DNA of 64,000 nt from Polyangiales bacterium (GTDB lineage Bacteria; Myxococcota_A; Polyangia; Polyangiales; Polyangiaceae). Positions within the stretch are counted from its first letter, which is position 1; each line of letters starts with the position of its first letter. The DNA is taken from the NCBI GenBank assembly GCA_038231275.1, contig JBBRLQ010000027.1:44841-108840 (forward strand), given 5' to 3'. A model generated the notes under the pieces. The model had not been told where the DNA came from, searched no databases, and worked only from the letters and a program-made list of their open reading frames with translations. A program made the translations under genes and the position numbers. Shown piece by piece: positions 1,145 through 63,184 of this stretch.

Positions 1145-2839
1145 TCAGAACCCGAATTGCATTCCGGCCTCGAGGCCGAACGACGGCGTTAGGCCGGCGT
1201 TCCCGAACGCGAAGTTCACGCGCGGTCCCACGAGAAACGCGGCGCGCGGCGAGAACGCGTAACGAATGCCGCCGCCGACCGCGGCGAATACCGGCCCGCC
1301 GACCGACCACGCGTCGACCTGTTTGGTGCCAGTCACGCCGGTCTCGCGGACGCTGACGGCGACCTTCCCACTGAACTCGCCGTAGCCGGCCGCGACCATG
1401 ACATACGGCGCGAGCCCCGCTTTGCCGAGCGGATTTTTGCCGATCAAATACGTCCCTCGCACTTCGATGTGCACGGGCCCTATTTGCGACGCTTTGCCGT
1501 CGTTCGCCGCGGCGGCGCCAGGATACCGGAGGAGGATGATGCCCGCGCGCACGCCCGCGAGGATGTTCGCCGTGATGGCGACATCGAGCGAGAGGAGCAT
1601 GCGCACGTTGCCGATCGTGCCGCCGCCGGCGACCTTGTCGGTCTTGCCGTCCTTGACGATGTTGATGTTCTGCTGGCCCGATCGATCGTTGCGGTCAGGG
1701 TAGTCGGAGCCCCCGGAGTCGACGCAGTAGTACCCGGCGGTGTTGAGCGGCGCGGCTGCGGCGTCCTGCGAGAGCTTGCACACGTCCTCCGCCGAGCCGA
1801 CGAGCGTGAACTCCGCGCCGACCGAGAAGCCGACCCAGATGCGCTTGAAGGCGGACTTTTCCTCGGGCTTCGTGCACTTGTTGTTCTTGCACTTGCCGCT
1901 CGCGCAGACGCTGTCCTCCTCGCACTCCTCGTCCTGGGCCTTGCCCTTGGGCGTCTCGTCGGTGACCGGCGGCTTGCCGCTGTGGCATCCGGGGAAGTCG
2001 GGCGGGCAGTCGCCGGTGTCGGCGCATTGCGCGGGCGCGGGCTGATCGGGCAGGTGCGGCGGATCGCCTTCGATCTTGTCGCGCTTGACGGGGACTTTGT
2101 ACGGGTGGTTGCGATCGCCGGCCGTGGCGACTGGATCGTTCTGCTCGTTGAAGCCCTGGAGGTAGTACTGCAAGTCCCCCTGGATGACGTCGAGGCACGG
2201 GATCTGGCCGCCCCAGCCCTTGCCCGTCTTCTTGAGCTCGGCGCTCTTCCACTCCGTCATGCCGAAGCCCTTGTAGCGGGCGACGACCTTTACGATCGCC
2301 TCGGACCCGCCGTACTCGGCGTAGACCGGCACCGGCGTGCGAACGAGCTGCATCGCGACGGGCGTGTGCGTGAAGTCACCGGCCGGCGCGGGGCCAGGTC
2401 CGGGAGGCGCGCCCCCGCCCTTCTTCGCCTTCTCCCACGCGTCCTCGACGTCCTTCGTCTTCAGGTCCGGATCGAGCTGCACGGTGGGGTCGATGGCCAT
2501 CGCCTCCGCGAAGTTTTTGACGGCCTCGTCCTTGTTGATGTTGCCGCCGATTTGGACGACGCCGAGATCGCGTTTCAGCTGGGCGCGGATCGGGGGAGAA
2601 CACTTGTCCGTCCCGCAGAGCTGCATGGCCTTGTTCAGCTTGTCGGACGCCTTCCCGAACTCGGTCGTGAGGTAGTCCTCGTCCATCGCTTTCTTCTGGA
2701 GCTGCTTGGCCTGCGCTTCGACCGCCTTGTTCTGCGCACGCGCGGTGCGTGGCACGGCGAGCGCGAGGACCGCGAAGGCGAGCGCGACAAGGAGGGCAAA
2801 GCGAGGGGGAAGTCGCGAGAGGACGGGGAGGCGTTCCAC
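1145..2839 (-). CDS. Secreted/outer-membrane myxobacterial hypothetical protein (helical N-term, beta-rich domain, Cys-rich linker, C-terminal beta-barrel-like region ending in F)
   Basis: Signal peptide (..ARA|QN), DCPPDFPGC motif, amphipathic strands ending GMQFGF; stop abuts the ligase start. Confidence 0.75.
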   Translation of the reverse strand: MERLPVLSRLPPRFALLVALAFAVLALAVPRTARAQNKAVEAQAKQLQKKAMDEDYLTTEFGKASDKLNKAMQLCGTDKCSPPIRAQLKRDLGVVQIGGNINKDEAVKNFAEAMAIDPTVQLDPDLKTKDVEDAWEKAKKGGGAPPGPGPAPAGDFTHTPVAMQLVRTPVPVYAEYGGSEAIVKVVARYKGFGMTEWKSAELKKTGKGWGGQIPCLDVIQGDLQYYLQGFNEQNDPVATAGDRNHPYKVPVKRDKIEGDPPHLPDQPAPAQCADTGDCPPDFPGCHSGKPPVTDETPKGKAQDEECEEDSVCASGKCKNNKCTKPEEKSAFKRIWVGFSVGAEFTLVGSAEDVCKLSQDAAAAPLNTAGYYCVDSGGSDYPDRNDRSGQQNINIVKDGKTDKVAGGGTIGNVRMLLSLDVAITANILAGVRAGIILLRYPGAAAANDGKASQIGPVHIEVRGTYLIGKNPLGKAGLAPYVMVAAGYGEFSGKVAVSVRETGVTGTKQVDAWSVGGPVFAAVGGGIRYAFSPRAAFLVGPRVNFAFGNAGLTPSFGLEAGMQFGF

Positions 2840-5866: not shown

Positions 5867-5931
5867 GTGATGGTCCAGGTTACCCTCGTCCTTTTCAAAG
5901 TGCGAGATTGCGCCGATGATGCGTCCCGAGC

Positions 5932-6651
5932 ATGGACCAACATCAACCGATCGTGGTGCTGGGCTTCGGAGAAGCCGCCGGCCATTGGGCGCAGGCGCTG
6001 AGCCACAACGGCCACCGCGCCGTCCTCGCGGACCCGTTCACATTCGTCCCCCCTTCGCCGGGCCACGGGCCGCGCCCCATCAAGTGCGTCGTCATCGACA
6101 CCGCCCTCGACATCACGCCAAACCTCCTCCAAGCCGTCCGCGGCGCCGGCATCCCCGCGATCCTCGCGACCAGCCCTCACATCCCGCAAAACCCCAACCG
6201 CGATCCCCTCACCCACTACGGCACGTGGATCGCGGACGCCTACGTCGGCTCCGCCGAAGAGCTCGTTCACGCCGTCCCCATCGTCCTCGACACGAACACG
6301 AGCCCGGACGGCGCCGCGCTCCACCTGACGTATCGCGGCTCGATCCCCCCGATGGAAGCCGCCTTCCCCATCGGCACCGCCTTTCCCCTCCGCGAAGGCG
6401 CCGCCTGCTTCATCGGCCGCAGTCGCGCCAGCACCGTCATGCTCGGCTCCCCCCACGTCGGCCGCATGCACGCCATGATCGCCGCCATCCCCGGCGGCGA
6501 AAAACGCGCAGCCATGATGGATCTCCAATCCCACAACGGCTCGTACGTCAAAGGCCAGCGCGTCGGCGGCGACGTCCTCTCCCCCGGCGACGAGCTCGCA
6601 ATCGCCGGCTACCGCTTCGTCTTGGAGTGCTTGCCTTCTTATTCGGCGTGA
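5932..6651 (+). CDS. FHA domain-containing protein
   Basis: C-terminal IGRS...VGRMHA...DLQSHNGSYVKG...LSPGDELAIAG. Confidence 0.8.
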   Translation: MDQHQPIVVLGFGEAAGHWAQALSHNGHRAVLADPFTFVPPSPGHGPRPIKCVVIDTALDITPNLLQAVRGAGIPAILATSPHIPQNPNRDPLTHYGTWIADAYVGSAEELVHAVPIVLDTNTSPDGAALHLTYRGSIPPMEAAFPIGTAFPLREGAACFIGRSRASTVMLGSPHVGRMHAMIAAIPGGEKRAAMMDLQSHNGSYVKGQRVGGDVLSPGDELAIAGYRFVLECLPSYSA

Positions 6652-6812
6652 GCCGAATAAGAATTTACTGGTTGTGTGGGCTCGCCGCCCCCCCATCGCT
6701 TCGCGCTGGGGGCCCCCCGGCATCGCCTACGGCGAAGGCGCGCTGCGCACGCCGGCGTCGGGAAACGCGGTGGAGATGGCCGTCGTGGTGCGGAAAGAGA
6801 TAATGACGGGCA

Positions 6813-7238
6813 ATGGGAGCGCTCTCGCATCTCCACGATGGACGGATCATCGGGTACGACGTTCGCGGCGAAGCCCGGCGCATTGTCATTTACGTGAGGC
6901 CGGAGGCCACCGATGCACGCCTCCAGCTCCTCACGTTCGAAGGTGTGATCGCCTATCGCTTCGACGACGTAGCCGACGTCAGCATCCTTCTCGACGTCGA
7001 AGAGATCGCGCCCGCCCGCTTCCTCGCGAAGGAGTGGCCACAAATTAGTGCGGGCTACCACAGATCAGGAGCCCCCGGCGGCCCCGCGCCATGGGGAACC
7101 TCGCAGGAGAAAGTCCTCGCATACCTCATCGAGCACGCCACGAAGGCCTTCGTCCTCGAGCCAACCTGGGGCATGTCAGGCTGGGTCCTCGCACGGTCCG
7201 CCGTCGTCACCGAAGCCCCCGCAAACCGCGACCCCTAA
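6813..7238 (+). CDS. Hypothetical protein
   Basis: 141-aa ORF with normal protein composition (LHDGRIIGY...WGMSGWVLA); no family recognised. Confidence 0.65.
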   Translation: MGALSHLHDGRIIGYDVRGEARRIVIYVRPEATDARLQLLTFEGVIAYRFDDVADVSILLDVEEIAPARFLAKEWPQISAGYHRSGAPGGPAPWGTSQEKVLAYLIEHATKAFVLEPTWGMSGWVLARSAVVTEAPANRDP

Positions 7239-52254: not shown

Positions 52255-53703
52255 TCAGACCAAGAGCTGCGCGTACTGACCGTCGGCCAAGCTCGAGTGG
52301 CCGAAGTGCGTGTACGGCTGTCCGTTGTTCTTCGCGCCGCACGCGTTGAGCAGCGTCGTGAGGAGCAAATTGTGCCCCGCGCTGTCGTCGCCCAAAATCA
52401 TGTTGCCCTTGAAGTTGCCATTCGAGTCGGTGGACGGCGCGGGCGCGCTCTTCGTGAGGTTCACGTACTGCCCGGTCTTGAGCGCGCCGCCCGCGCCGCC
52501 CGCGATGACGACGGGGAGGTCGTGGTACTGGTGGTAGTCGCCGTCGGAGAGCTCGTTGATCCAGAGCACCGCGCTGTTGTCGAGCACGCTGTTGGCGCCC
52601 TCTTTGTACGCGTCGAGCTTGTCGAGCAGGTACTTCATCTGCGTCGCGTGCCACGTGTCGATCTGGAACAGCATGTCCATGAAGCCGGCGATCGGCGATC
52701 CGAGGCCGCTGCCGCTGCCGCCGTGCGAGATGGCGTGGTGATTGAACGCGAAGTTCATCCCGTCCCACTTGAACACCGGGCCGCCTGAACCGCGGCCCCA
52801 GAGGATCGACGCGACGTTGCTGCGGTTGCACGCGACCGCGAGCGTGAGGATGTCCATCGTCAGCTGCCCGAGCGCTTTGAAGTTGGCGTCGTCACCGACG
52901 GTCTTCGGGTTAATCGCGCCGGTCGCGGAGGCGAGCTCGGGCGCGATCGTGCACGAAAGACCGCTCGCGCCGTTCTCCGCAGCACGGAGGTTCGTGAGGT
53001 GCATGTCGAGCTTCTGCTGGTCCGCCGCGGAGAGGCCCTTGCGCTTGAGCGCCGCGAGGTCGGTGCTGACGAGGTCGAGGACGCTCTGGCGTCGCGCGTT
53101 CACCATCGCCTGCGTCTTGGTGTCGGCGGTCGCGAGCCCGAGGCTGTCCAAGAGAAGCTTGGGGTTGTTCTGGCCCTTCACCGGCGCGTTGGGGCCGCTG
53201 TACGAGATGATCCCGAGATCGTCGGAGCCCTGCGTGCCGACGGACGCGGTCAGCGCAGAGACGCCGGCAGGGTTGAGGCTCTTGGCCATCTCCTGATCGA
53301 CCGAGATGCCCGTCGGGTACCCGGTGACGTCGGCCGACGACTTCGGCTGCGCCGTGAGCTTGTGCGCCATGCCGACCTGATGATCGCAGCCCATCGTGAC
53401 GGGCGACTGCATGTAGCCCTTTGGCTCGGTGTGGAGGCCGCGCGGAATGAGGAGGCGGCTCGCGTACGGCGCAAGCGGCGCGAGCGCGGTCCCGGCACCA
53501 AACGAAGCCGCGGTGAGCGGACCGAAGCCGCCCGTCGGGAAGAACTTGTCCATGTTGACGCCGTTGCACTGGAAAAAGCAGATGAACCGCTTCGACACCG
53601 GCGGCGGCGTGCCCGCGCGGACGCCGCGCATCTCGATGCTCTCCAGGAAAGGCAGCGCGAGGACGACCCCGCCGATGCCACGAAGGAATGCGCGTCGATG
53701 CAT
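52255..53703 (-). CDS. DUF1552 family protein (Tat-exported)
   Basis: HRRAFLRG..G..LALPFLES; SVDQ; SVLD; KLD.HL..LR; SVLDNS; PVVIAGGAGG. Confidence 0.85.
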   Translation of the reverse strand: MHRRAFLRGIGGVVLALPFLESIEMRGVRAGTPPPVSKRFICFFQCNGVNMDKFFPTGGFGPLTAASFGAGTALAPLAPYASRLLIPRGLHTEPKGYMQSPVTMGCDHQVGMAHKLTAQPKSSADVTGYPTGISVDQEMAKSLNPAGVSALTASVGTQGSDDLGIISYSGPNAPVKGQNNPKLLLDSLGLATADTKTQAMVNARRQSVLDLVSTDLAALKRKGLSAADQQKLDMHLTNLRAAENGASGLSCTIAPELASATGAINPKTVGDDANFKALGQLTMDILTLAVACNRSNVASILWGRGSGGPVFKWDGMNFAFNHHAISHGGSGSGLGSPIAGFMDMLFQIDTWHATQMKYLLDKLDAYKEGANSVLDNSAVLWINELSDGDYHQYHDLPVVIAGGAGGALKTGQYVNLTKSAPAPSTDSNGNFKGNMILGDDSAGHNLLLTTLLNACGAKNNGQPYTHFGHSSLADGQYAQLLV

Positions 53704-53705
53704 GA

Positions 53706-55391
53706 CTAGCTCCCGTCTCCGGGTCGGAACAAGAACGACCGCGTCTGCGTCAGGTCGAGGATGAAGCTCTGGACGTCGTAGGCCGGGTCCGCCAGCTTCG
53801 TGGTGAACGCGTCGATGACCGGCGTGTCGGCGGTCGCCTCCTGGTGGGCGTAGGCGTACCGCATCCAGTTCGTGACGAAGCAGCGGCGCGCCTGCGTGCT
53901 CGCGGCGAGCTTGTGGGCGAAGTCGACGGCGTCGGTGAACGAAACGTCGGCGCCGTCCATGCGGATCGTCGCTGCCGCATCGACCGGAGCGCCGTTGTCT
54001 TGATCGCGCCACGCGCCGATGCCGTCGTAGTGCTCGAACGCGAAGCCGCCCGGGTTGATGATCGACGTATGGCAGCCGTTGCATGGCGCGCCCGCGGTGT
54101 GCGCGGCGACGCGATCGCGCGTGGTCTTCAGCGTCGCGCTCGGCGGCGGGATCGTCGGGTTGACGCCGGGCGGCGGCGGCGGGATCTGGTTGCAGAGCAG
54201 CTGGCGCTGGATGAAGACGCCGCGGTGAATCGGCGAGTCACCGTCCGCGTACGCGTGCGAGGCCAGGAACCCGACCTGCGTGAGGTACCCGGCTCGCTGC
54301 GCGGGGTTCAGCTGCACCTTCTGCAGATCCTTGGTGAAGGTGCCCTGGACTCCGTAGATTTTCGCCGTGTCGGAGTTCACGAAGGTGTACGGCGCCGTCA
54401 TCAGCGCGCTGAATCCGCCCTTGTCGTCGAAGACGACGGAGCTGACGAACTGCGTCGCCTCGAGCTGCAGCGTCGCGCCGGTGTCGGCGGAAAATCCCGG
54501 GTAGGTCGCCGGATTCTTGGTGAGGTAGTTGGTCGCGTAGCGACTGAGCTGGAGCCACTGCGAATGAAAATCGGCGATCGTCTCGCGCGCCCGCGGATCG
54601 GCGAGGAGGCGGAGCGCCTGCGCGCGCACCTGGTCGAACGTGTGCATCTGCCCGGCGTCCGCGGCAGCGGCGAGCGAGTCGTCGGGCATCGTGTTCCAGA
54701 GGAGGTAGGACGTGCGCGACGCCACCTCGTAGTCGCTCAGTGGGATCGCGCCGTCGGCGGCCTTCGTCTGACCGAGCTCGGCGCGGTAGAGGAAATACGG
54801 AGACTGGAGCATCGACTCGATGACGAACTGCACGCCGTTGTCGAACGCGTTGGTCCCTGCGTACGACGCGGCCGCTTTGGTGAAGCCGGCGAGATACGCG
54901 GCGGTCTCCGCGTCCTCGAGCGGACGGCGGAACGCGCGCCGGCCGAACTTCTGGATGAACTCTTTGGCGCACGCCGAGCCGTCGCCGGCGGGCGTGCACG
55001 TCACGAGCTTCGCGAGCGACTTGGTGACGGCGCCGGCCGCGAGCGCCTCTGCCGACTGCTGGTACTGCTGAACGAGCACGTCGCTCGCGGTGAGCCCGTC
55101 GGCGTTGTTGTCGTACCCGGCGAAGCTCGAGTCCGCGAGAAAGGAGAGCGACGGCGGCGTGTCCGGCGTGTACCGCAAGAGGTCCGCGACCGTGTTGTCG
55201 TATTGTTTGTGGGTCAGTCGGGCGATGCGCGTGAGGGGGCCGGTGACCGCGGCGGTGGGGCCGCCGACCCCGGGGCCGCCAGGATCCCCAGGGATGCCTT
55301 GCCCCGTGGATCCGCCGCCGTCGCCGACGGTGCCGACGCACGCGGCGACGACGACCAACGGCGCGAGCACTCCAAGCGTGCTGAGTTTCAC
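53706..55391 (-). CDS. DUF1592/DUF1588/DUF1595-type multidomain protein (PSCyt/PSD family)
   Basis: RLTHKQYDNTVADLL, FGRRAFRRPL, LQSPYFLYRAE, YEVASR.SY.LW.TMPD, SPIHRGVFI, CNGCH, GFAFEHYDGIG.WR. Confidence 0.88.
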   Translation of the reverse strand: MKLSTLGVLAPLVVVAACVGTVGDGGGSTGQGIPGDPGGPGVGGPTAAVTGPLTRIARLTHKQYDNTVADLLRYTPDTPPSLSFLADSSFAGYDNNADGLTASDVLVQQYQQSAEALAAGAVTKSLAKLVTCTPAGDGSACAKEFIQKFGRRAFRRPLEDAETAAYLAGFTKAAASYAGTNAFDNGVQFVIESMLQSPYFLYRAELGQTKAADGAIPLSDYEVASRTSYLLWNTMPDDSLAAAADAGQMHTFDQVRAQALRLLADPRARETIADFHSQWLQLSRYATNYLTKNPATYPGFSADTGATLQLEATQFVSSVVFDDKGGFSALMTAPYTFVNSDTAKIYGVQGTFTKDLQKVQLNPAQRAGYLTQVGFLASHAYADGDSPIHRGVFIQRQLLCNQIPPPPPGVNPTIPPPSATLKTTRDRVAAHTAGAPCNGCHTSIINPGGFAFEHYDGIGAWRDQDNGAPVDAAATIRMDGADVSFTDAVDFAHKLAASTQARRCFVTNWMRYAYAHQEATADTPVIDAFTTKLADPAYDVQSFILDLTQTRSFLFRPGDGS

Positions 55392-56798: not shown

Positions 56799-56810
56799 GA
56801 CCCCTCATAG

Positions 56811-58130
56811 ATGGCCCGGAATCGAGCTTCTGGCACGGACGCGGGCGATTTTTTCCGGCATGGCGGGAGCTGGTACCCTCCACCCGACGCCATGTTGGAT
56901 CCGCGAGCCGCGCGCGCAACCCTCGGCGACTCGCACAATTTCGGGCGACGCGTGTCGATGCGCGGGCGGCGGGTGCACAAACCTCGCACGCTCGTGTGGG
57001 AGTGGCTGCTCCTCTCGGCGGAGAGCCCCCTGCGGCGGCTGCTCGACGAAGCGGCGTCGCGGGATGGGCTGGGACGCGACGCGTTCGGGTTCTTGCCCGA
57101 GCTCAAATTCTTCCCGGCGCGGCCCGAGGCCGACGGCGAGGTGGAGCGCGTCGTGCTGGAGCCGCTGCCCCCGCCGTCACGCGATCGCAGACACGCCCTC
57201 GCGAAGATCGTGGGACGCGCGATCGCGCTCTTCAGCTGGCTCGGGGTCTCGGATCTGCACTGGGAGAACCTCGTGCTGGGGATCGATCGTCGCGGTCACG
57301 TGGTCTTCGCGCCACTCGACGTCGAGATGATCCTCTCGGACCTCGCGCTGCCGACGGAGACGAAGCTGGTGCCCGACGCCGATCCGGAGGTCGCGGCGAT
57401 CTGTCGGCACGCGTGCGGCGTCCGGCGCGTCCTGCCGTACCTCGGCAAGCCCGTCGCCGCGGCGGATCTGGTCGCGCTCGTCGCGGCGTACGGCCGCACG
57501 CTCGCTTTTTTCGACACTCACGCGCGGAAGATCGCCGACGTGATCGCGCACCTGCCCGCACTTCGGGAGACGCCCATTCGTGTATGCCTGCGTGGAACGG
57601 ACGAGTACGTCCTCGCGCGCACGAGTTCGGGTCACGCGCTCTGGCCACCGTTGCTCGAGGAAGAGGTGGAGCAGCTGGCTCGCGGGGACATCCCGTATTT
57701 CTTCCGCTTGTACGGCCGCCGAGGCATTCACTACTACGCCGAGGCGACGCTCCGCCGGCTCGGGAGGCTTCCTCTCGAAGGCGACACGCCGCAGCTCGAG
57801 CCGCTCCTTGGTCTGTCGCGCGGCCTTCGCTCGCCGTCGCGGAGGAGCTTGCGCGAGGAGGGGCTCTTCACGCTGATCGGAGCCTTCGACCATCCGTCGC
57901 TGACCGGCACGCACGAGAGCGAAGGGCTCGAGATCACGTTCATGGCTCGAACGCTGGTCGTGAAGCAGCAAGAGGAGCTGCGTTCGACTCGGAACCTGAG
58001 CGCGTTCGTCGGCAGCGTCTACTTGCCATGCCGCTGCGGGGAGGTGCGCACCGTCTTCGTCCCCGAGAAGACCATTTGCGAGGCGGGATCCGCCCGATTC
58101 TCGCGTGCACGGCCCAAAGAGAAGTGGTAA
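56811..58130 (+). CDS. Stand-alone LanM-type dehydratase domain (DUF4135-like)
   Basis: GDSH..G..V, KPR, SDLHWEN, LDVE, RVCLRGT..Y, EQLARGDIPYF in LanM order; no LanC cyclase domain; start may be 56892. Confidence 0.8.
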   Translation: MARNRASGTDAGDFFRHGGSWYPPPDAMLDPRAARATLGDSHNFGRRVSMRGRRVHKPRTLVWEWLLLSAESPLRRLLDEAASRDGLGRDAFGFLPELKFFPARPEADGEVERVVLEPLPPPSRDRRHALAKIVGRAIALFSWLGVSDLHWENLVLGIDRRGHVVFAPLDVEMILSDLALPTETKLVPDADPEVAAICRHACGVRRVLPYLGKPVAAADLVALVAAYGRTLAFFDTHARKIADVIAHLPALRETPIRVCLRGTDEYVLARTSSGHALWPPLLEEEVEQLARGDIPYFFRLYGRRGIHYYAEATLRRLGRLPLEGDTPQLEPLLGLSRGLRSPSRRSLREEGLFTLIGAFDHPSLTGTHESEGLEITFMARTLVVKQQEELRSTRNLSAFVGSVYLPCRCGEVRTVFVPEKTICEAGSARFSRARPKEKW

Positions 58131-58795
58131 CTCGCGAAGCTGTGACGGGTTCCTCTTGTGAGACGTGCCGGCGCCCGACCGTCGCGTGCGTGTGCGATCG
58201 CATCGTGCCGTACCCGACCGAGCGGCGAATCCTCATCTTGCAGCATCCCCAAGAGCAGGACGCGCTCCTCGGGTCCGCGCAGATCCTCGTTGCGAGCCTC
58301 CCGAAGGCGAAGCTCGTCGTCGGGCTCAGCTGGCGCGGTCTGGCGCACGCGCTCCGCGAAGAAGACGTCGACGTCGCGAAATGGGCGGTCCTGTTCCCCG
58401 ATCGCGAGTCGGAAGGCGATCAGGTCGCGGCGCGAGGCGGCGTCACCCTCGCGCCGAACGAGCTGCATGGCATCGTGGTGCTCGACGGGACGTGGTCCAA
58501 GGCCAAGACGTTGTGGTGGCGCAATCCTTGGCTCTCCAAGATGAACCGCATCACGCTCAAGCCCACCAAGCCGTCCATCTACGGCAAGCTCCGCGCGGAG
58601 CCGCGGCGCGATTTCGTCTCGACGCTCGAGTCCGTCGCGGGCGCGCTCACGCTCTGCGGCGAGTCTCCGGAGATCGAGGTCGGCCTCTCGCGCGTCTTCC
58701 GCACACTCGTGCAGCGCGTCCGCGACGCGAACATTCCGACGGCCGCGCGACGGTTGCCGCGCGCTACCCGCCCTCCGCGGACGCCCGAGTCTTAG
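58124..58795 (+). CDS. DTW-domain tRNA-uridine aminocarboxypropyltransferase (TapT-like)
   Basis: CETCRRP...CVC, ILQHPQE, VLDGTWSKAK, STLES; start 58124 or 58142. Confidence 0.88.
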   Translation: MVTREAVTGSSCETCRRPTVACVCDRIVPYPTERRILILQHPQEQDALLGSAQILVASLPKAKLVVGLSWRGLAHALREEDVDVAKWAVLFPDRESEGDQVAARGGVTLAPNELHGIVVLDGTWSKAKTLWWRNPWLSKMNRITLKPTKPSIYGKLRAEPRRDFVSTLESVAGALTLCGESPEIEVGLSRVFRTLVQRVRDANIPTAARRLPRATRPPRTPES

Positions 58796-61769: not shown

Positions 61770-61789
61770 GCGCTTCGCTCCACTCATCA
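61770..61789 (-). repeat. Second copy of REP-like motif TGATGAGTGGAGCGAAGCGC
   Basis: Identical 20-mer to 16592-16611; begins at the TGA stop of the upstream gene in both cases. Confidence 0.7.
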
Positions 61790-62962
61790 GTTGCAGAGAT
61801 CGCTGCCGCCGAAGTCGCCGGCGTAGCACCCGCTGGAGCAGAAGGCCGAGTCGCTGACCGTTCCGTAGGAGCACGTGTAGAGCGTTCCGGGATCGCCGTG
61901 GACGCCGTTCGAGCCGCAGTACGTGCCGTCCGACAGACCCGTGCAGTCCGCGCCGCCGCCGCCCGAGGTGTACGAGCAATAGTCGTCGGTGTTGCTCGAG
62001 CCGACCGTGCAGCCGTTGGCGCACGGCTGCGAGCCGGTGAGGCTTCCGCCCTTGCAGGTGTAGAGCGTGTTCGGATCGCCGTTCACGCCGTCGGAGCCGC
62101 AGTACTTGTAGTCGGGCAGGCCCGAGCAGCTCACGCCGCCACCACCACCGCCGCTCGAGGTCTCGCAGTAGTCGTTGATCGCGGGGTCGGGGTTCGTCAC
62201 GCAGCCGTTGGCGCACACCTGTGAGCTGGCGACCGCGTCGTTCTCGCAGTCGTAGAGCGTGTTCGCGTTGCCACCGACGCCGTCGCCGCCGCAGAAGAGG
62301 CCGCTGTGTCCGGAGCAGTTCGCGCCGCTCGTTCCGCCGCCGCCGCCGCTACCGTTGCAGGAGTCGTCGACGCCGGGGTTCGTCTTGCAGCCGTTCGGGC
62401 ACTGCCGGACGATCGAGATGCTGGAGCCGCTGCACTGGTAGAGCGTGTTGGGATCGCCGTTGGGGCCGTCGTTGCCGCAGTAGAGCGCGCCCGACGTGAG
62501 GCCGGCGCAGCTGGGTCCGTGGTTCGGCGGCGGGTTGGTGATGCCGGCGCAGTTGAAGGTGACCATCGCACCGCCGCAGATGAGCTCGTTCTTCTTGCCG
62601 GTGGCGAGGAGGCAGCCGACCTGCTCGAGGCTGTTGGTGAGCTTGCTGCAGCACGCGCTCAGCGCGAGGCACGTCGGGCCGGGGCCGGTGTTCTCGGGCC
62701 CGCCTGCGTCCTTGTTCCCCTTCGCGGGCGGCGGCGGCGCGGCGTCGGGGCTCGCGGCGTCGGCGACTTGCTTCGCGCCACCGTCGGCGGGCGGAGTGCT
62801 CGGCGGCTTTGACGGCGGCGTGCCGGTGCCGGAGTCGAGCTTGCCGGTGCTCGGCGCCTCCTGTCCCTTCAAATCATCCGAGCCGCTCGACGCGCCTCCC
62901 GCGCAGTGAACGAGGGCGAAGGCGGAAGCGACCGTGGCGAGGGCGAGGATAACGTTGCGCAT
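61787..62962 (-). CDS. Secreted lipoprotein with four tandem 6-Cys repeats
   Basis: LVHC lipobox-like; 4x C..G...YCG.DG..GDPNTLY.C......C..GC......D.C joined by poly-Gly. Confidence 0.8.
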   Translation of the reverse strand: MRNVILALATVASAFALVHCAGGASSGSDDLKGQEAPSTGKLDSGTGTPPSKPPSTPPADGGAKQVADAASPDAAPPPPAKGNKDAGGPENTGPGPTCLALSACCSKLTNSLEQVGCLLATGKKNELICGGAMVTFNCAGITNPPPNHGPSCAGLTSGALYCGNDGPNGDPNTLYQCSGSSISIVRQCPNGCKTNPGVDDSCNGSGGGGGTSGANCSGHSGLFCGGDGVGGNANTLYDCENDAVASSQVCANGCVTNPDPAINDYCETSSGGGGGGVSCSGLPDYKYCGSDGVNGDPNTLYTCKGGSLTGSQPCANGCTVGSSNTDDYCSYTSGGGGADCTGLSDGTYCGSNGVHGDPGTLYTCSYGTVSDSAFCSSGCYAGDFGGSDLCN

Positions 62963-62977
62963 GATGCCCAACCATGG

Positions 62978-62993
62978 TGCAAATGTACGACCA
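62978..62993 (-). promoter_or_regulatory. Candidate sigma54 promoter
   Basis: Minus strand TGGTCGTACATTTGCA, GG-N10-GC spacing, upstream of ATG 62962. Confidence 0.3.
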
Positions 62994-63184
62994 TGTGGGT
63001 ATGAGTGGGCGGTACTGTCGCAGGTATTCGACTCTGCTTGAAATTTTCCAGACCGCTCCGCCGCGCGGGCGGGACGGTGGTCTCCAACGGAGACGCTTCG
63101 TGGACTTCGTGATCCACCAGGGCGACGCGAGCGGCGGTCTAGGTCGCTGCTGCGTTTGCCCGTTCCGTTCAAACCACGTCCGCT

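Follow-up and report, generated by a model that had tools for sequence, protein, structure and literature searches.

A minimal stand-alone LanM-type dehydratase domain encoded beside a TapT-type DTW gene in Polyangiaceae

The window analysed here, a stretch of 64,000 nucleotides from a Polyangiales bacterium (assembly GCA_038231275.1, contig JBBRLQ010000027.1, positions 44,841 to 108,840), encodes a protein of 412 residues, hereafter mini-LanM, which, judging by its modeled fold and its catalytic residues, is best described as a minimal stand-alone LanM-type Ser/Thr kinase and phosphate lyase domain and not as a LanM. LanM dehydratases are parts of enzymes of ~1000 residues that are guided by leader peptides; mini-LanM comprises a single DUF4135 domain and is followed by a gene for a TapT-type DTW protein. 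The pairing of the two genes is conserved without being obligatory, and we posit, with a probability of about 0.4, that the minimal dehydratase and its private DTW enzyme constitute one functional module.

The open reading frame (ORF) of mini-LanM spans 56811..58130 on the plus strand and gives 439 residues when counted from its first ATG; the protein collection lists the window protein with 412 residues beginning at ATG 56892 (record P0001). Because its homologues begin 5-14 residues ahead of the GDSH motif, ATG 56892 is the likelier start, leaving 11 residues ahead of GDSH, as compared to 38 from ATG 56811. The initial annotation, made from the letters alone, had described an ORF of ~410-440 residues with GDSH, KPR, DLHWEN, DVE, and RVCLRGT motifs, few residues before GDSH, and no LanC domain, and this description was borne out in full: each motif translates at the position listed in Table 1, and a Pfam scan of mini-LanM, which ends at residue 412, yields no LANC_like match. 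The Pfam profile that it had named for checking, PF13575 (DUF4135), matches above the gathering cut-off (36.2 bits against 29, E 5.1e-9), and the same family is found in the precomputed annotation of 118 of the 120 homologues among the matches listed, the exceptions being P0045 and the window protein P0001.

When compared with solved structures, the single mini-LanM sequence finds 0 matches, while a profile of 42 family members reaches LicM2 (2e-7) and CylM (5.4e-7). An AlphaFold model of mini-LanM (predicted local distance difference test score, pLDDT, 86.5; predicted template modeling score, pTM, 0.88) has CylM (3.8e-8) and LicM2 (5.9e-8) as its top two folds in a Foldseek search, followed by the PI3K, VPS34, and ATM kinases. 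Superposition on CylM, which the initial annotation had envisaged, gives a VIA-align Z score of 14.9 and a root-mean-square deviation of 3.2 Å over 280 aligned residues, with residues 4-369 of the model lying on residues 242-686 of the CylM chain; the Z score against LicM2 is 13.5, and mini-LanM is 15-18% identical to the two enzymes. Since the alignment runs from CylM residue 242 onward, mini-LanM is equivalent to the dehydratase domain of LanM taken from its P-loop on and, by both the structure alignment and the Pfam scan, is without the first ~240 residues of LanM and without the whole LanC cyclase.

Mutagenesis reported for CylM (PMC4550811) assigns K274, D347, H349, N352, and D364 to phosphorylation and D252, H254, R506, and T512 to phosphate elimination, and mini-LanM keeps the counterparts of all nine. 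In a family alignment of 46 rows, 24 from the clade to which the window protein belongs and 22 from distant relatives, D13, H15, K30, D121, H123, N126, D143, and R230 are each present in 46/46 rows and T236 is present in 44, with Ser in the remaining two. The fold match to CylM and LicM2 and the nine retained residues thus uphold the LanM-type dehydratase identity put forward in the initial annotation. For mini-LanM we infer dehydratase activity and a polypeptide substrate.

The downstream gene begins with a GTG at 58124 that overlaps the mini-LanM stop codon, the TAA at 58128-58130, as the initial annotation had proposed; a second GTG lies at 58142. Its product passes the Pfam threshold for the DTW family (PF03942, 135.2 bits against a cut-off of 33.7), and a profile of linked DTW proteins, i.e., those encoded beside mini-LanM genes, matches the solved Escherichia coli TapT structure (9kyt) at 1.6e-7. 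Linked DTW proteins carry the TapT signatures, a four-Cys finger, LILQHPQE, DGTW, and VSTLE; of the four basic residues in the helix patch of TapT, they retain only two in our reading of the alignment (TapT residues taken for comparison from PMC12630136). The gene is therefore predicted from its sequence to encode a TapT-type DTW aminocarboxypropyl transferase, which would transfer the aminocarboxypropyl (acp) group to tRNA U47. Compared with a sister type of DTW (47-56% identity) that is common in genomes without mini-LanM, the linked type shows a deletion in a loop and, at the C-terminus, an extra basic tail rich in Pro and Arg. Counting this one, the DTW genes of the window genome number three; the other two lie at C15:196467-197021 (locus L025) and C3:25107-25658 (L026), the C15 protein being 35% identical to the window copy, and the branches by which both join the DTW tree are very long (4.85 and 7.8).

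The initial annotation had suggested the DTW gene and the divergent lipoprotein gene as candidate conserved neighbors, and the two suggestions fared differently. A DTW gene lies downstream in 9 of the 10 loci from the order that have downstream DNA; in 66/80 loci of the genome collection, at a distance of up to 300 nucleotides (nt) in 64 cases and of about 2.1 kb in 2; and in 62/73 clade loci from metagenomes. The remaining 14 genome loci comprise 2 without room for the gene and 12 with room but no DTW, and the other 11 metagenome loci comprise 10 without room and 1 with room but no DTW. These three locus sets overlap partly and include relatives, so the counts are not independent. The two genes stay adjacent in several families of the order and in loci whose mini-LanM is as little as 55% identical. 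The lipoprotein gene, in contrast, is a neighbor in 1/80 loci.

Within the order sample, the linked DTW is also confined to genomes with mini-LanM. A DTW match is present in 95 of the 151 genomes sampled from the order (tallies that include G123, flagged as unpublished, on which alone we base no claim), yet a DTW of at least 62% identity is found in 9 of the 11 further genomes that carry mini-LanM and in none of the 139 that lack it, where the best match is 56% or less. Of the two mini-LanM genomes that stand apart, G012 has a contig that ends 95 nt past the gene, and G121 has a best DTW of 54% on another contig. In a tree of 35 DTWs of the linked type, 9 sister-type DTWs (out of 10 fetched), and the two other DTWs of the window genome, the linked proteins form one clade (Shimodaira-Hasegawa-like approximate likelihood ratio test 99) on a stem branch of 0.85; contexts of the sister-type genes are variable, with no shared partner. 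Dependence looks one-sided in these samples: a linked DTW never occurs without mini-LanM, whereas the reverse does occur. A prediction of the complex of mini-LanM and DTW (score 0.01, mark 0.32) counts neither for nor against an interaction.

Two variants of the pair occur. In L028 (5989-7938) and L052 (4493-6412), mini-LanM and DTW lie in the same frame; they were considered as fusion genes and rejected as such, since one stop codon separates the two genes. Hypothetical read-through would yield a fusion protein. In genome G130 (C11:2134790-2135436; L022, L205), a split DTW stands next to an intact mini-LanM and may reflect a pseudogene or a sequencing error.

Table 1. Features of the mini-LanM/DTW locus, in coordinates of the window
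Feature	Position	Strand	Remarks
Divergent intergenic region	56799..56891	.	93 bp; from the lipoprotein gene (start 56798, minus) to the mini-LanM start
mini-LanM gene	56892..58130	+	412 aa, DUF4135 domain only; upstream ATG 56811 is an alternative giving 439 aa
GDSH P-loop motif	56925..56936	+	D13, H15 = CylM D252, H254 (phosphate elimination)
KPR	56979..56987	+	K30 = CylM K274 (activates ATP gamma-phosphate)
DLHWEN catalytic loop	57252..57269	+	D121, H123, N126 = CylM D347, H349, N352
DVE	57318..57326	+	D143 = CylM D364 metal ligand
Cys-Arg-His in insertion after DVE	57402..57410	+	C171, H173; clade-specific
RVCLRGT	57579..57599	+	R230, T236 = CylM R506, T512 (phosphate elimination)
EVEQLARGDIPYFF	57663..57704	+	Best-conserved part of the family; matched by Pfam DUF4135
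Tail C-x-C...C, CRCGEVRTVFVPEKTIC	58029..58079	+	C380, C382, C396; clade-specific
TapT-type DTW gene	58124..58795	+	223 aa; GTG start overlaps mini-LanM stop
Four-Cys zinc finger of TapT-type DTW proteins, CETCRRPTVACVC	58157..58195	+	C12, C15, C22, C24 in alignment
DGTW motif of DTW domain	58484..58495	+	D121-W124; aligns to LDGTW of E. coli TapT

Mini-LanM belongs to a sizable family of short proteins, with hundreds of homologues of 390-420 residues, nearly all from genomes of Polyangiaceae type. Of 8000 candidates scored in a word-indexed search, 849 proteins reached E<=1e-3, and the homologues among the 120 matches listed are 366-433 residues long and 67-100% identical to the window protein; an exhaustive search of 50% representatives returned 453 proteins at the same threshold, many of them 340-390 residues long and 29-40% identical, and the ESM Atlas holds more short DUF4135 clusters, from Bacillota (385 residues) and Pseudomonadota (445 residues). 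The close clade is patchily distributed: it occurs in 12 of the 151 genomes sampled from the order, and in a sample of the phylum mini-LanM is present in 5/401 genomes, all of the clade type. Named clade records are almost all from Polyangiaceae or Myxococcales, with one Sandaracinaceae bin and two bins labeled Acidobacteriota, and the named carriers include Minicystis rosea DSM 24000 (P0018), Polyangium fumosum DSM 14668, and Polyangium jinanense SDU13. A search for longer or fused forms gave 1 match among the 8000 candidates, P0273 (759 residues), which is a frameshifted gene call; this result weakly suggests that fused forms of mini-LanM are absent.

Two Cys-containing features set the clade apart from its distant relatives. 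In the alignment, C171 is present in 22/24 clade rows and H173 in 24/24, whereas the distant rows are gapped at the former position in 22/22 cases and at the latter in 20/22, and none of the 22 has either residue. C380, C382, and C396 of the C-terminal tail are each present in 24/24 clade rows and absent from 22/22 distant rows; the tail pattern VGSVYLPCxCGE....VPxVTxC is conserved in the clade and is present with or without an adjacent DTW gene. Going by the pattern of conservation, the loop with Cys-Arg-His and the tail with C-x-C...C probably build a structural zinc site, by which the tail would be tied to the loop after DVE. This putative site probably stands in for the missing N-terminal cap, and it may replace the capping elements that, as reported for CylM, stabilize the activation loop (PMC4550811).

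Among the 80 metagenome loci are 7, on five distinct contigs, that encode distant relatives, 29-39% identical to the window protein, and none of these has a DTW match. In L108, L157, and L166, which differ in GC content (0.51, 0.67, and 0.28, respectively), a mini-LanM-like gene is followed by an SBP_bac_5 gene and then by a histidine kinase (hybrid) gene; in L187, a kinase gene is convergent to the mini-LanM-like gene. Small ORFs lie directly upstream of the distant genes in L108 (5712-5930), L166 (5623-5964), and L187 (5897-5974); they have in common an E/Q-V/I-I-D/N-L/I...I/L-E motif and, after it, a C-terminus rich in Ser/Thr/Gly. These small ORFs likely encode precursor peptides, and their shared pattern supports the view that peptides were the ancestral substrates of the minimal family. 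The arrangement of small ORF, SBP_bac_5, and sensor kinase is found neither in the window nor in clade loci. The cassette proteins resemble mini-LanM in size (about 360 residues), in the invariant residues, and in the short N-terminus, but lack the DTW partner, the Cys-Arg-His loop, and the C-x-C...C tail of the window clade. One metagenome contig (L157/L158) carries mirror-image copies of a sigma-54-type gene plus mini-LanM, with 398-residue ORFs at 1512-2708 (minus) and 5893-7089 (plus), which represent an inverted duplication or an assembly artifact.

Within about 5 kb of the pair, the window encodes a DUF1552 protein, a DUF1585-1595 protein, a GFA protein, a lipoprotein of no family, a GH31 protein, and a Cys-rich protein of no family. 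The 93-bp upstream gap leaves no room for a precursor gene, and the end of the convergent GH31 gene falls within the final bases of DTW, leaving no gap past it; with the divergent lipoprotein gene on one side and the GH31 end on the other, mini-LanM and DTW are a tightly bounded pair. A promoter scan gave 0 promoter-like sites, and a terminator scan gave 2 terminator-like sites, both within coding sequence and not above shuffled sequence. No precursor, LanC, transporter, or protease gene is among the window neighbors within about 5 kb, in agreement with the initial annotation, which had seen no precursor, transporter, or protease nearby. A stand-alone LanC elsewhere in the genome, a further possibility raised there, did not materialize: the sole LanC-like domain of the genome lies on another contig behind a protein-kinase domain, in a class III/IV-like architecture (797-residue ORF; genome G000, contig C43, L001 133-2526).

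Among the flanking ORFs of the 80 genome loci, clustered at a length of at least 35 residues, none besides DTW is common to more than 13; in the top cluster (13/80), the tested member, from L037, is a Pkinase/AAA_16 protein. In 8/80 loci (e.g., L035 2649-3434 and L040 5042-5998), the gene directly upstream of mini-LanM, on the same strand, is that of an RsmE-type RNA methyltransferase (PF04452), so that this subgroup has a trio of RNA-modification genes; the arrangement weakly favors one functional module. A cassette-type leader pattern, a narrow regular expression built from three cassette peptides, has 0 matches in the window genome, and the PADLOC defense models contain 0 families matching mini-LanM or DTW at E<=0.01.

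Two further observations concern the wider neighborhood. At 61787-63172 (minus), a 461-residue ORF without a Pfam match has a Pro/Ala-rich linker and, after it, a Cys-rich unit (...YCG.DG..GD.NTLY.C...C..GC...) repeated several times; its product resembles a secreted repeat protein. At 52255-55391 (minus), the DUF1552 gene adjoins a DUF1585/1587/1588/1592/1595 gene; the listed ORFs share about 380 bases, and DUF1552 therefore probably starts downstream of its first ATG.

How might the pair work? We posit that mini-LanM would bind ATP/Mg and phosphorylate a Ser or Thr hydroxyl in a polypeptide, and that elimination of the phosphate would then leave dehydroalanine or dehydrobutyrine. In the Polyangiaceae clade, the substrate would be encoded away from the enzyme gene. 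Mini-LanM and DTW would be made by coupled translation, the DTW enzyme would still modify an RNA uridine, and mini-LanM would act on a protein connected with that enzyme, with DTW itself or some protein associated with translation as the first candidates. We favor one functional module because the start and stop codons overlap, adjacency is conserved, and the linked DTW clade is seen only with mini-LanM.

Other accounts of the enzyme itself have to be weighed against this one. The mini-LanM gene could be what is left of a truncated full-length LanM gene, its product being shorter than any LanM and scoring 19.3 bits against the NCBIfam LanM model TIGR03897, below its cut-off of 304; yet hundreds of homologues have the same length and conserved ends, the sole longer match is the frameshifted P0273, and all catalytic residues are kept, on which grounds we reject a remnant as next to impossible. 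With homologues of similar length at hand, DUF4135 and fold matches present, and the DTW adjacency conserved, the enzyme identity and the DTW link put forward in the initial annotation stand; the leader-independent action on a protein or a small molecule that it had also proposed is conjectural. Alternatively, the conserved tail might be a fused core peptide that mini-LanM modifies itself: it contains Ser/Thr and three Cys residues, model confidence is low there (pLDDT about 46-58 from about residue 380), and it is confined to a clade without a precursor gene. The invariance of the three Cys residues and H173, and the near-invariance of C171, fit a zinc site better, however, no protease or exporter is linked, and a fused core seems to us highly improbable. 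A kinase-only role, in which mini-LanM would perform regulatory Ser/Thr phosphorylation of a target protein, possibly DTW, without elimination, has a parallel in EmbM, a cyclase-less LanM-like protein of the phospeptin pathway described as phosphorylating only (PMC9505594), and the fold is that of PI3K-type kinases; EmbM, however, differs in the elimination residues according to the same description, while mini-LanM keeps all four in the family proportions given above, and we consider this role unlikely.

Several facts weigh against the single functional module that we favor. The Pfam DUF4135 match spans just 30 residues of mini-LanM (269-298). A substrate was not found, either among flanking ORFs of at least 35 residues or with the narrow leader pattern. 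The linked DTW and the 47-56% sister type never co-occur in the 151 genomes sampled, so the linked DTW may simply be the ordinary tRNA enzyme of its lineage. DTW is missing from 12 of the 78 informative genome loci, a state that needs 4-7 changes on the mini-LanM tree; the complete 9.9-Mb chromosome of G464 has mini-LanM but just a 40%-identical DTW; and in G130, the DTW beside mini-LanM is in two pieces with a TGA. Finally, no chemical logic joins dehydration with acp transfer. The two genes may instead be operon neighbors without a shared target, DTW being the lineage's ordinary tRNA acp3U transferase and mini-LanM an independent peptide dehydratase with its precursor elsewhere in the genome: the two DTW types exclude each other like orthologues, the neighbors of sister DTW genes vary, mini-LanM persists without the linked DTW in those loci and in G464, and its distant relatives sit in peptide cassettes without DTW. 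Against such independence stand the adjacency held to 55% mini-LanM identity in several families of the order, the overlapping codons, the long branch of the linked DTWs with their loop deletion and basic tail, the lack of a linked DTW in all 139 genomes without mini-LanM, and the 0 matches to the leader pattern in the genome itself; we regard it as doubtful, if far from negligible. A different substrate is also conceivable: mini-LanM, together with DTW, might act on the hydroxyl of a small molecule or of an amino acid linked to RNA, as in seryl-tRNA, threonyl-tRNA, or a nucleoside that bears threonine. The RNA-modifying context (DTW in most loci, an RsmE-type gene in 8/80) and the lack of a precursor gene speak for it, as does the more basic character of the clade (median isoelectric point 9.0 versus 6.2 in distant relatives), although GC content confounds this comparison. 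The catalytic set, however, is identical to that of the peptide-modifying relatives, some genomes have mini-LanM without the linked DTW, and no precedent is known for a LanM fold acting on RNA, although no search for one was made; a substrate of this kind has a low probability in our estimation. A slim chance, slighter still, remains for a version in which both enzymes modify one macromolecule and so install a hitherto unknown modification, mini-LanM phosphorylating and dehydrating a Ser/Thr-type hydroxyl of an RNA-linked amino acid (aminoacyl-tRNA or an amino-acid-bearing nucleoside) on a tRNA that bears acp from DTW or, in a sister version, DTW transferring acp to a protein residue of the mini-LanM target.

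A DUF4135 core of roughly 370 residues with the full catalytic set persists stand-alone and strongly conserved, with no precursor beside the clade genes, and its near-fixed pairing with DTW links two enzyme families that are not connected in print: a text search of the literature found no paper that joins "DTW domain" with "lanthipeptide," and among the DUF4135 papers listed, judged by title and abstract opening, none is on a DTW pairing. If the pair shares a target, it would suggest that the translation apparatus or a protein of myxobacteria carries an unknown modification; if it acted on a tRNA-linked amino acid, mini-LanM would be the first enzyme of LanM type with RNA as its target; and if there is no shared target, it would offer a compact scaffold for LanM-type substrate recognition without the N-terminal and cyclase parts. 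Since Minicystis rosea, Polyangium fumosum, and Polyangium jinanense are cultured carriers, the question of a shared target is testable.

Among known systems, mini-LanM is most like the LanM dehydratase domain of CylM (PDB 5DZT) and LicM2 (PDB 6ST5), with which it shares the fold and the nine catalytic residues; relative to CylM, it is without residues 1-241 and the LanC domain but carries the extra Cys-rich tail, and its locus, unlike class II lanthipeptide clusters, has no LanA, LanT, or protease gene. The DTW partner resembles TapT (YfiP), the E. coli tRNA acp3U47 aminocarboxypropyl transferase (PDB 9KYT), in its PF03942 domain, four-Cys finger, and DGTW motif, but falls into a separate clade seen only beside mini-LanM. 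The polytheonamide dehydratase PoyF and the phospeptin kinase EmbM are described as stand-alone LanM-like proteins with no zinc cyclase (PMC9505594); compared by description only, they belong to clusters for peptides made ribosomally and modified posttranslationally (RiPPs), beside a precursor, whereas mini-LanM has no linked precursor and a DTW partner. CcaM (LanMbC) of the dehydrazole pathway is reported as a DUF4135 dehydratase that works without a leader peptide (PMC10676384); the same report gives it 1015 residues, a fused class III-type cyclase domain needed for activity, and a place among YcaO genes, in contrast to the stand-alone mini-LanM. The network described in that study kept DUF4135 proteins of at least 500 residues, so proteins like mini-LanM were excluded from it (PMC10676384). 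Given cyclase-less PoyF and EmbM, leader-independent CcaM, and short DUF4135-only proteins in several phyla, the proposal of the initial annotation that this is an undescribed use of the LanM fold was overstated: stand-alone use of the fold is not new, but its minimal form and its pairing with a DTW enzyme appear to be undescribed.

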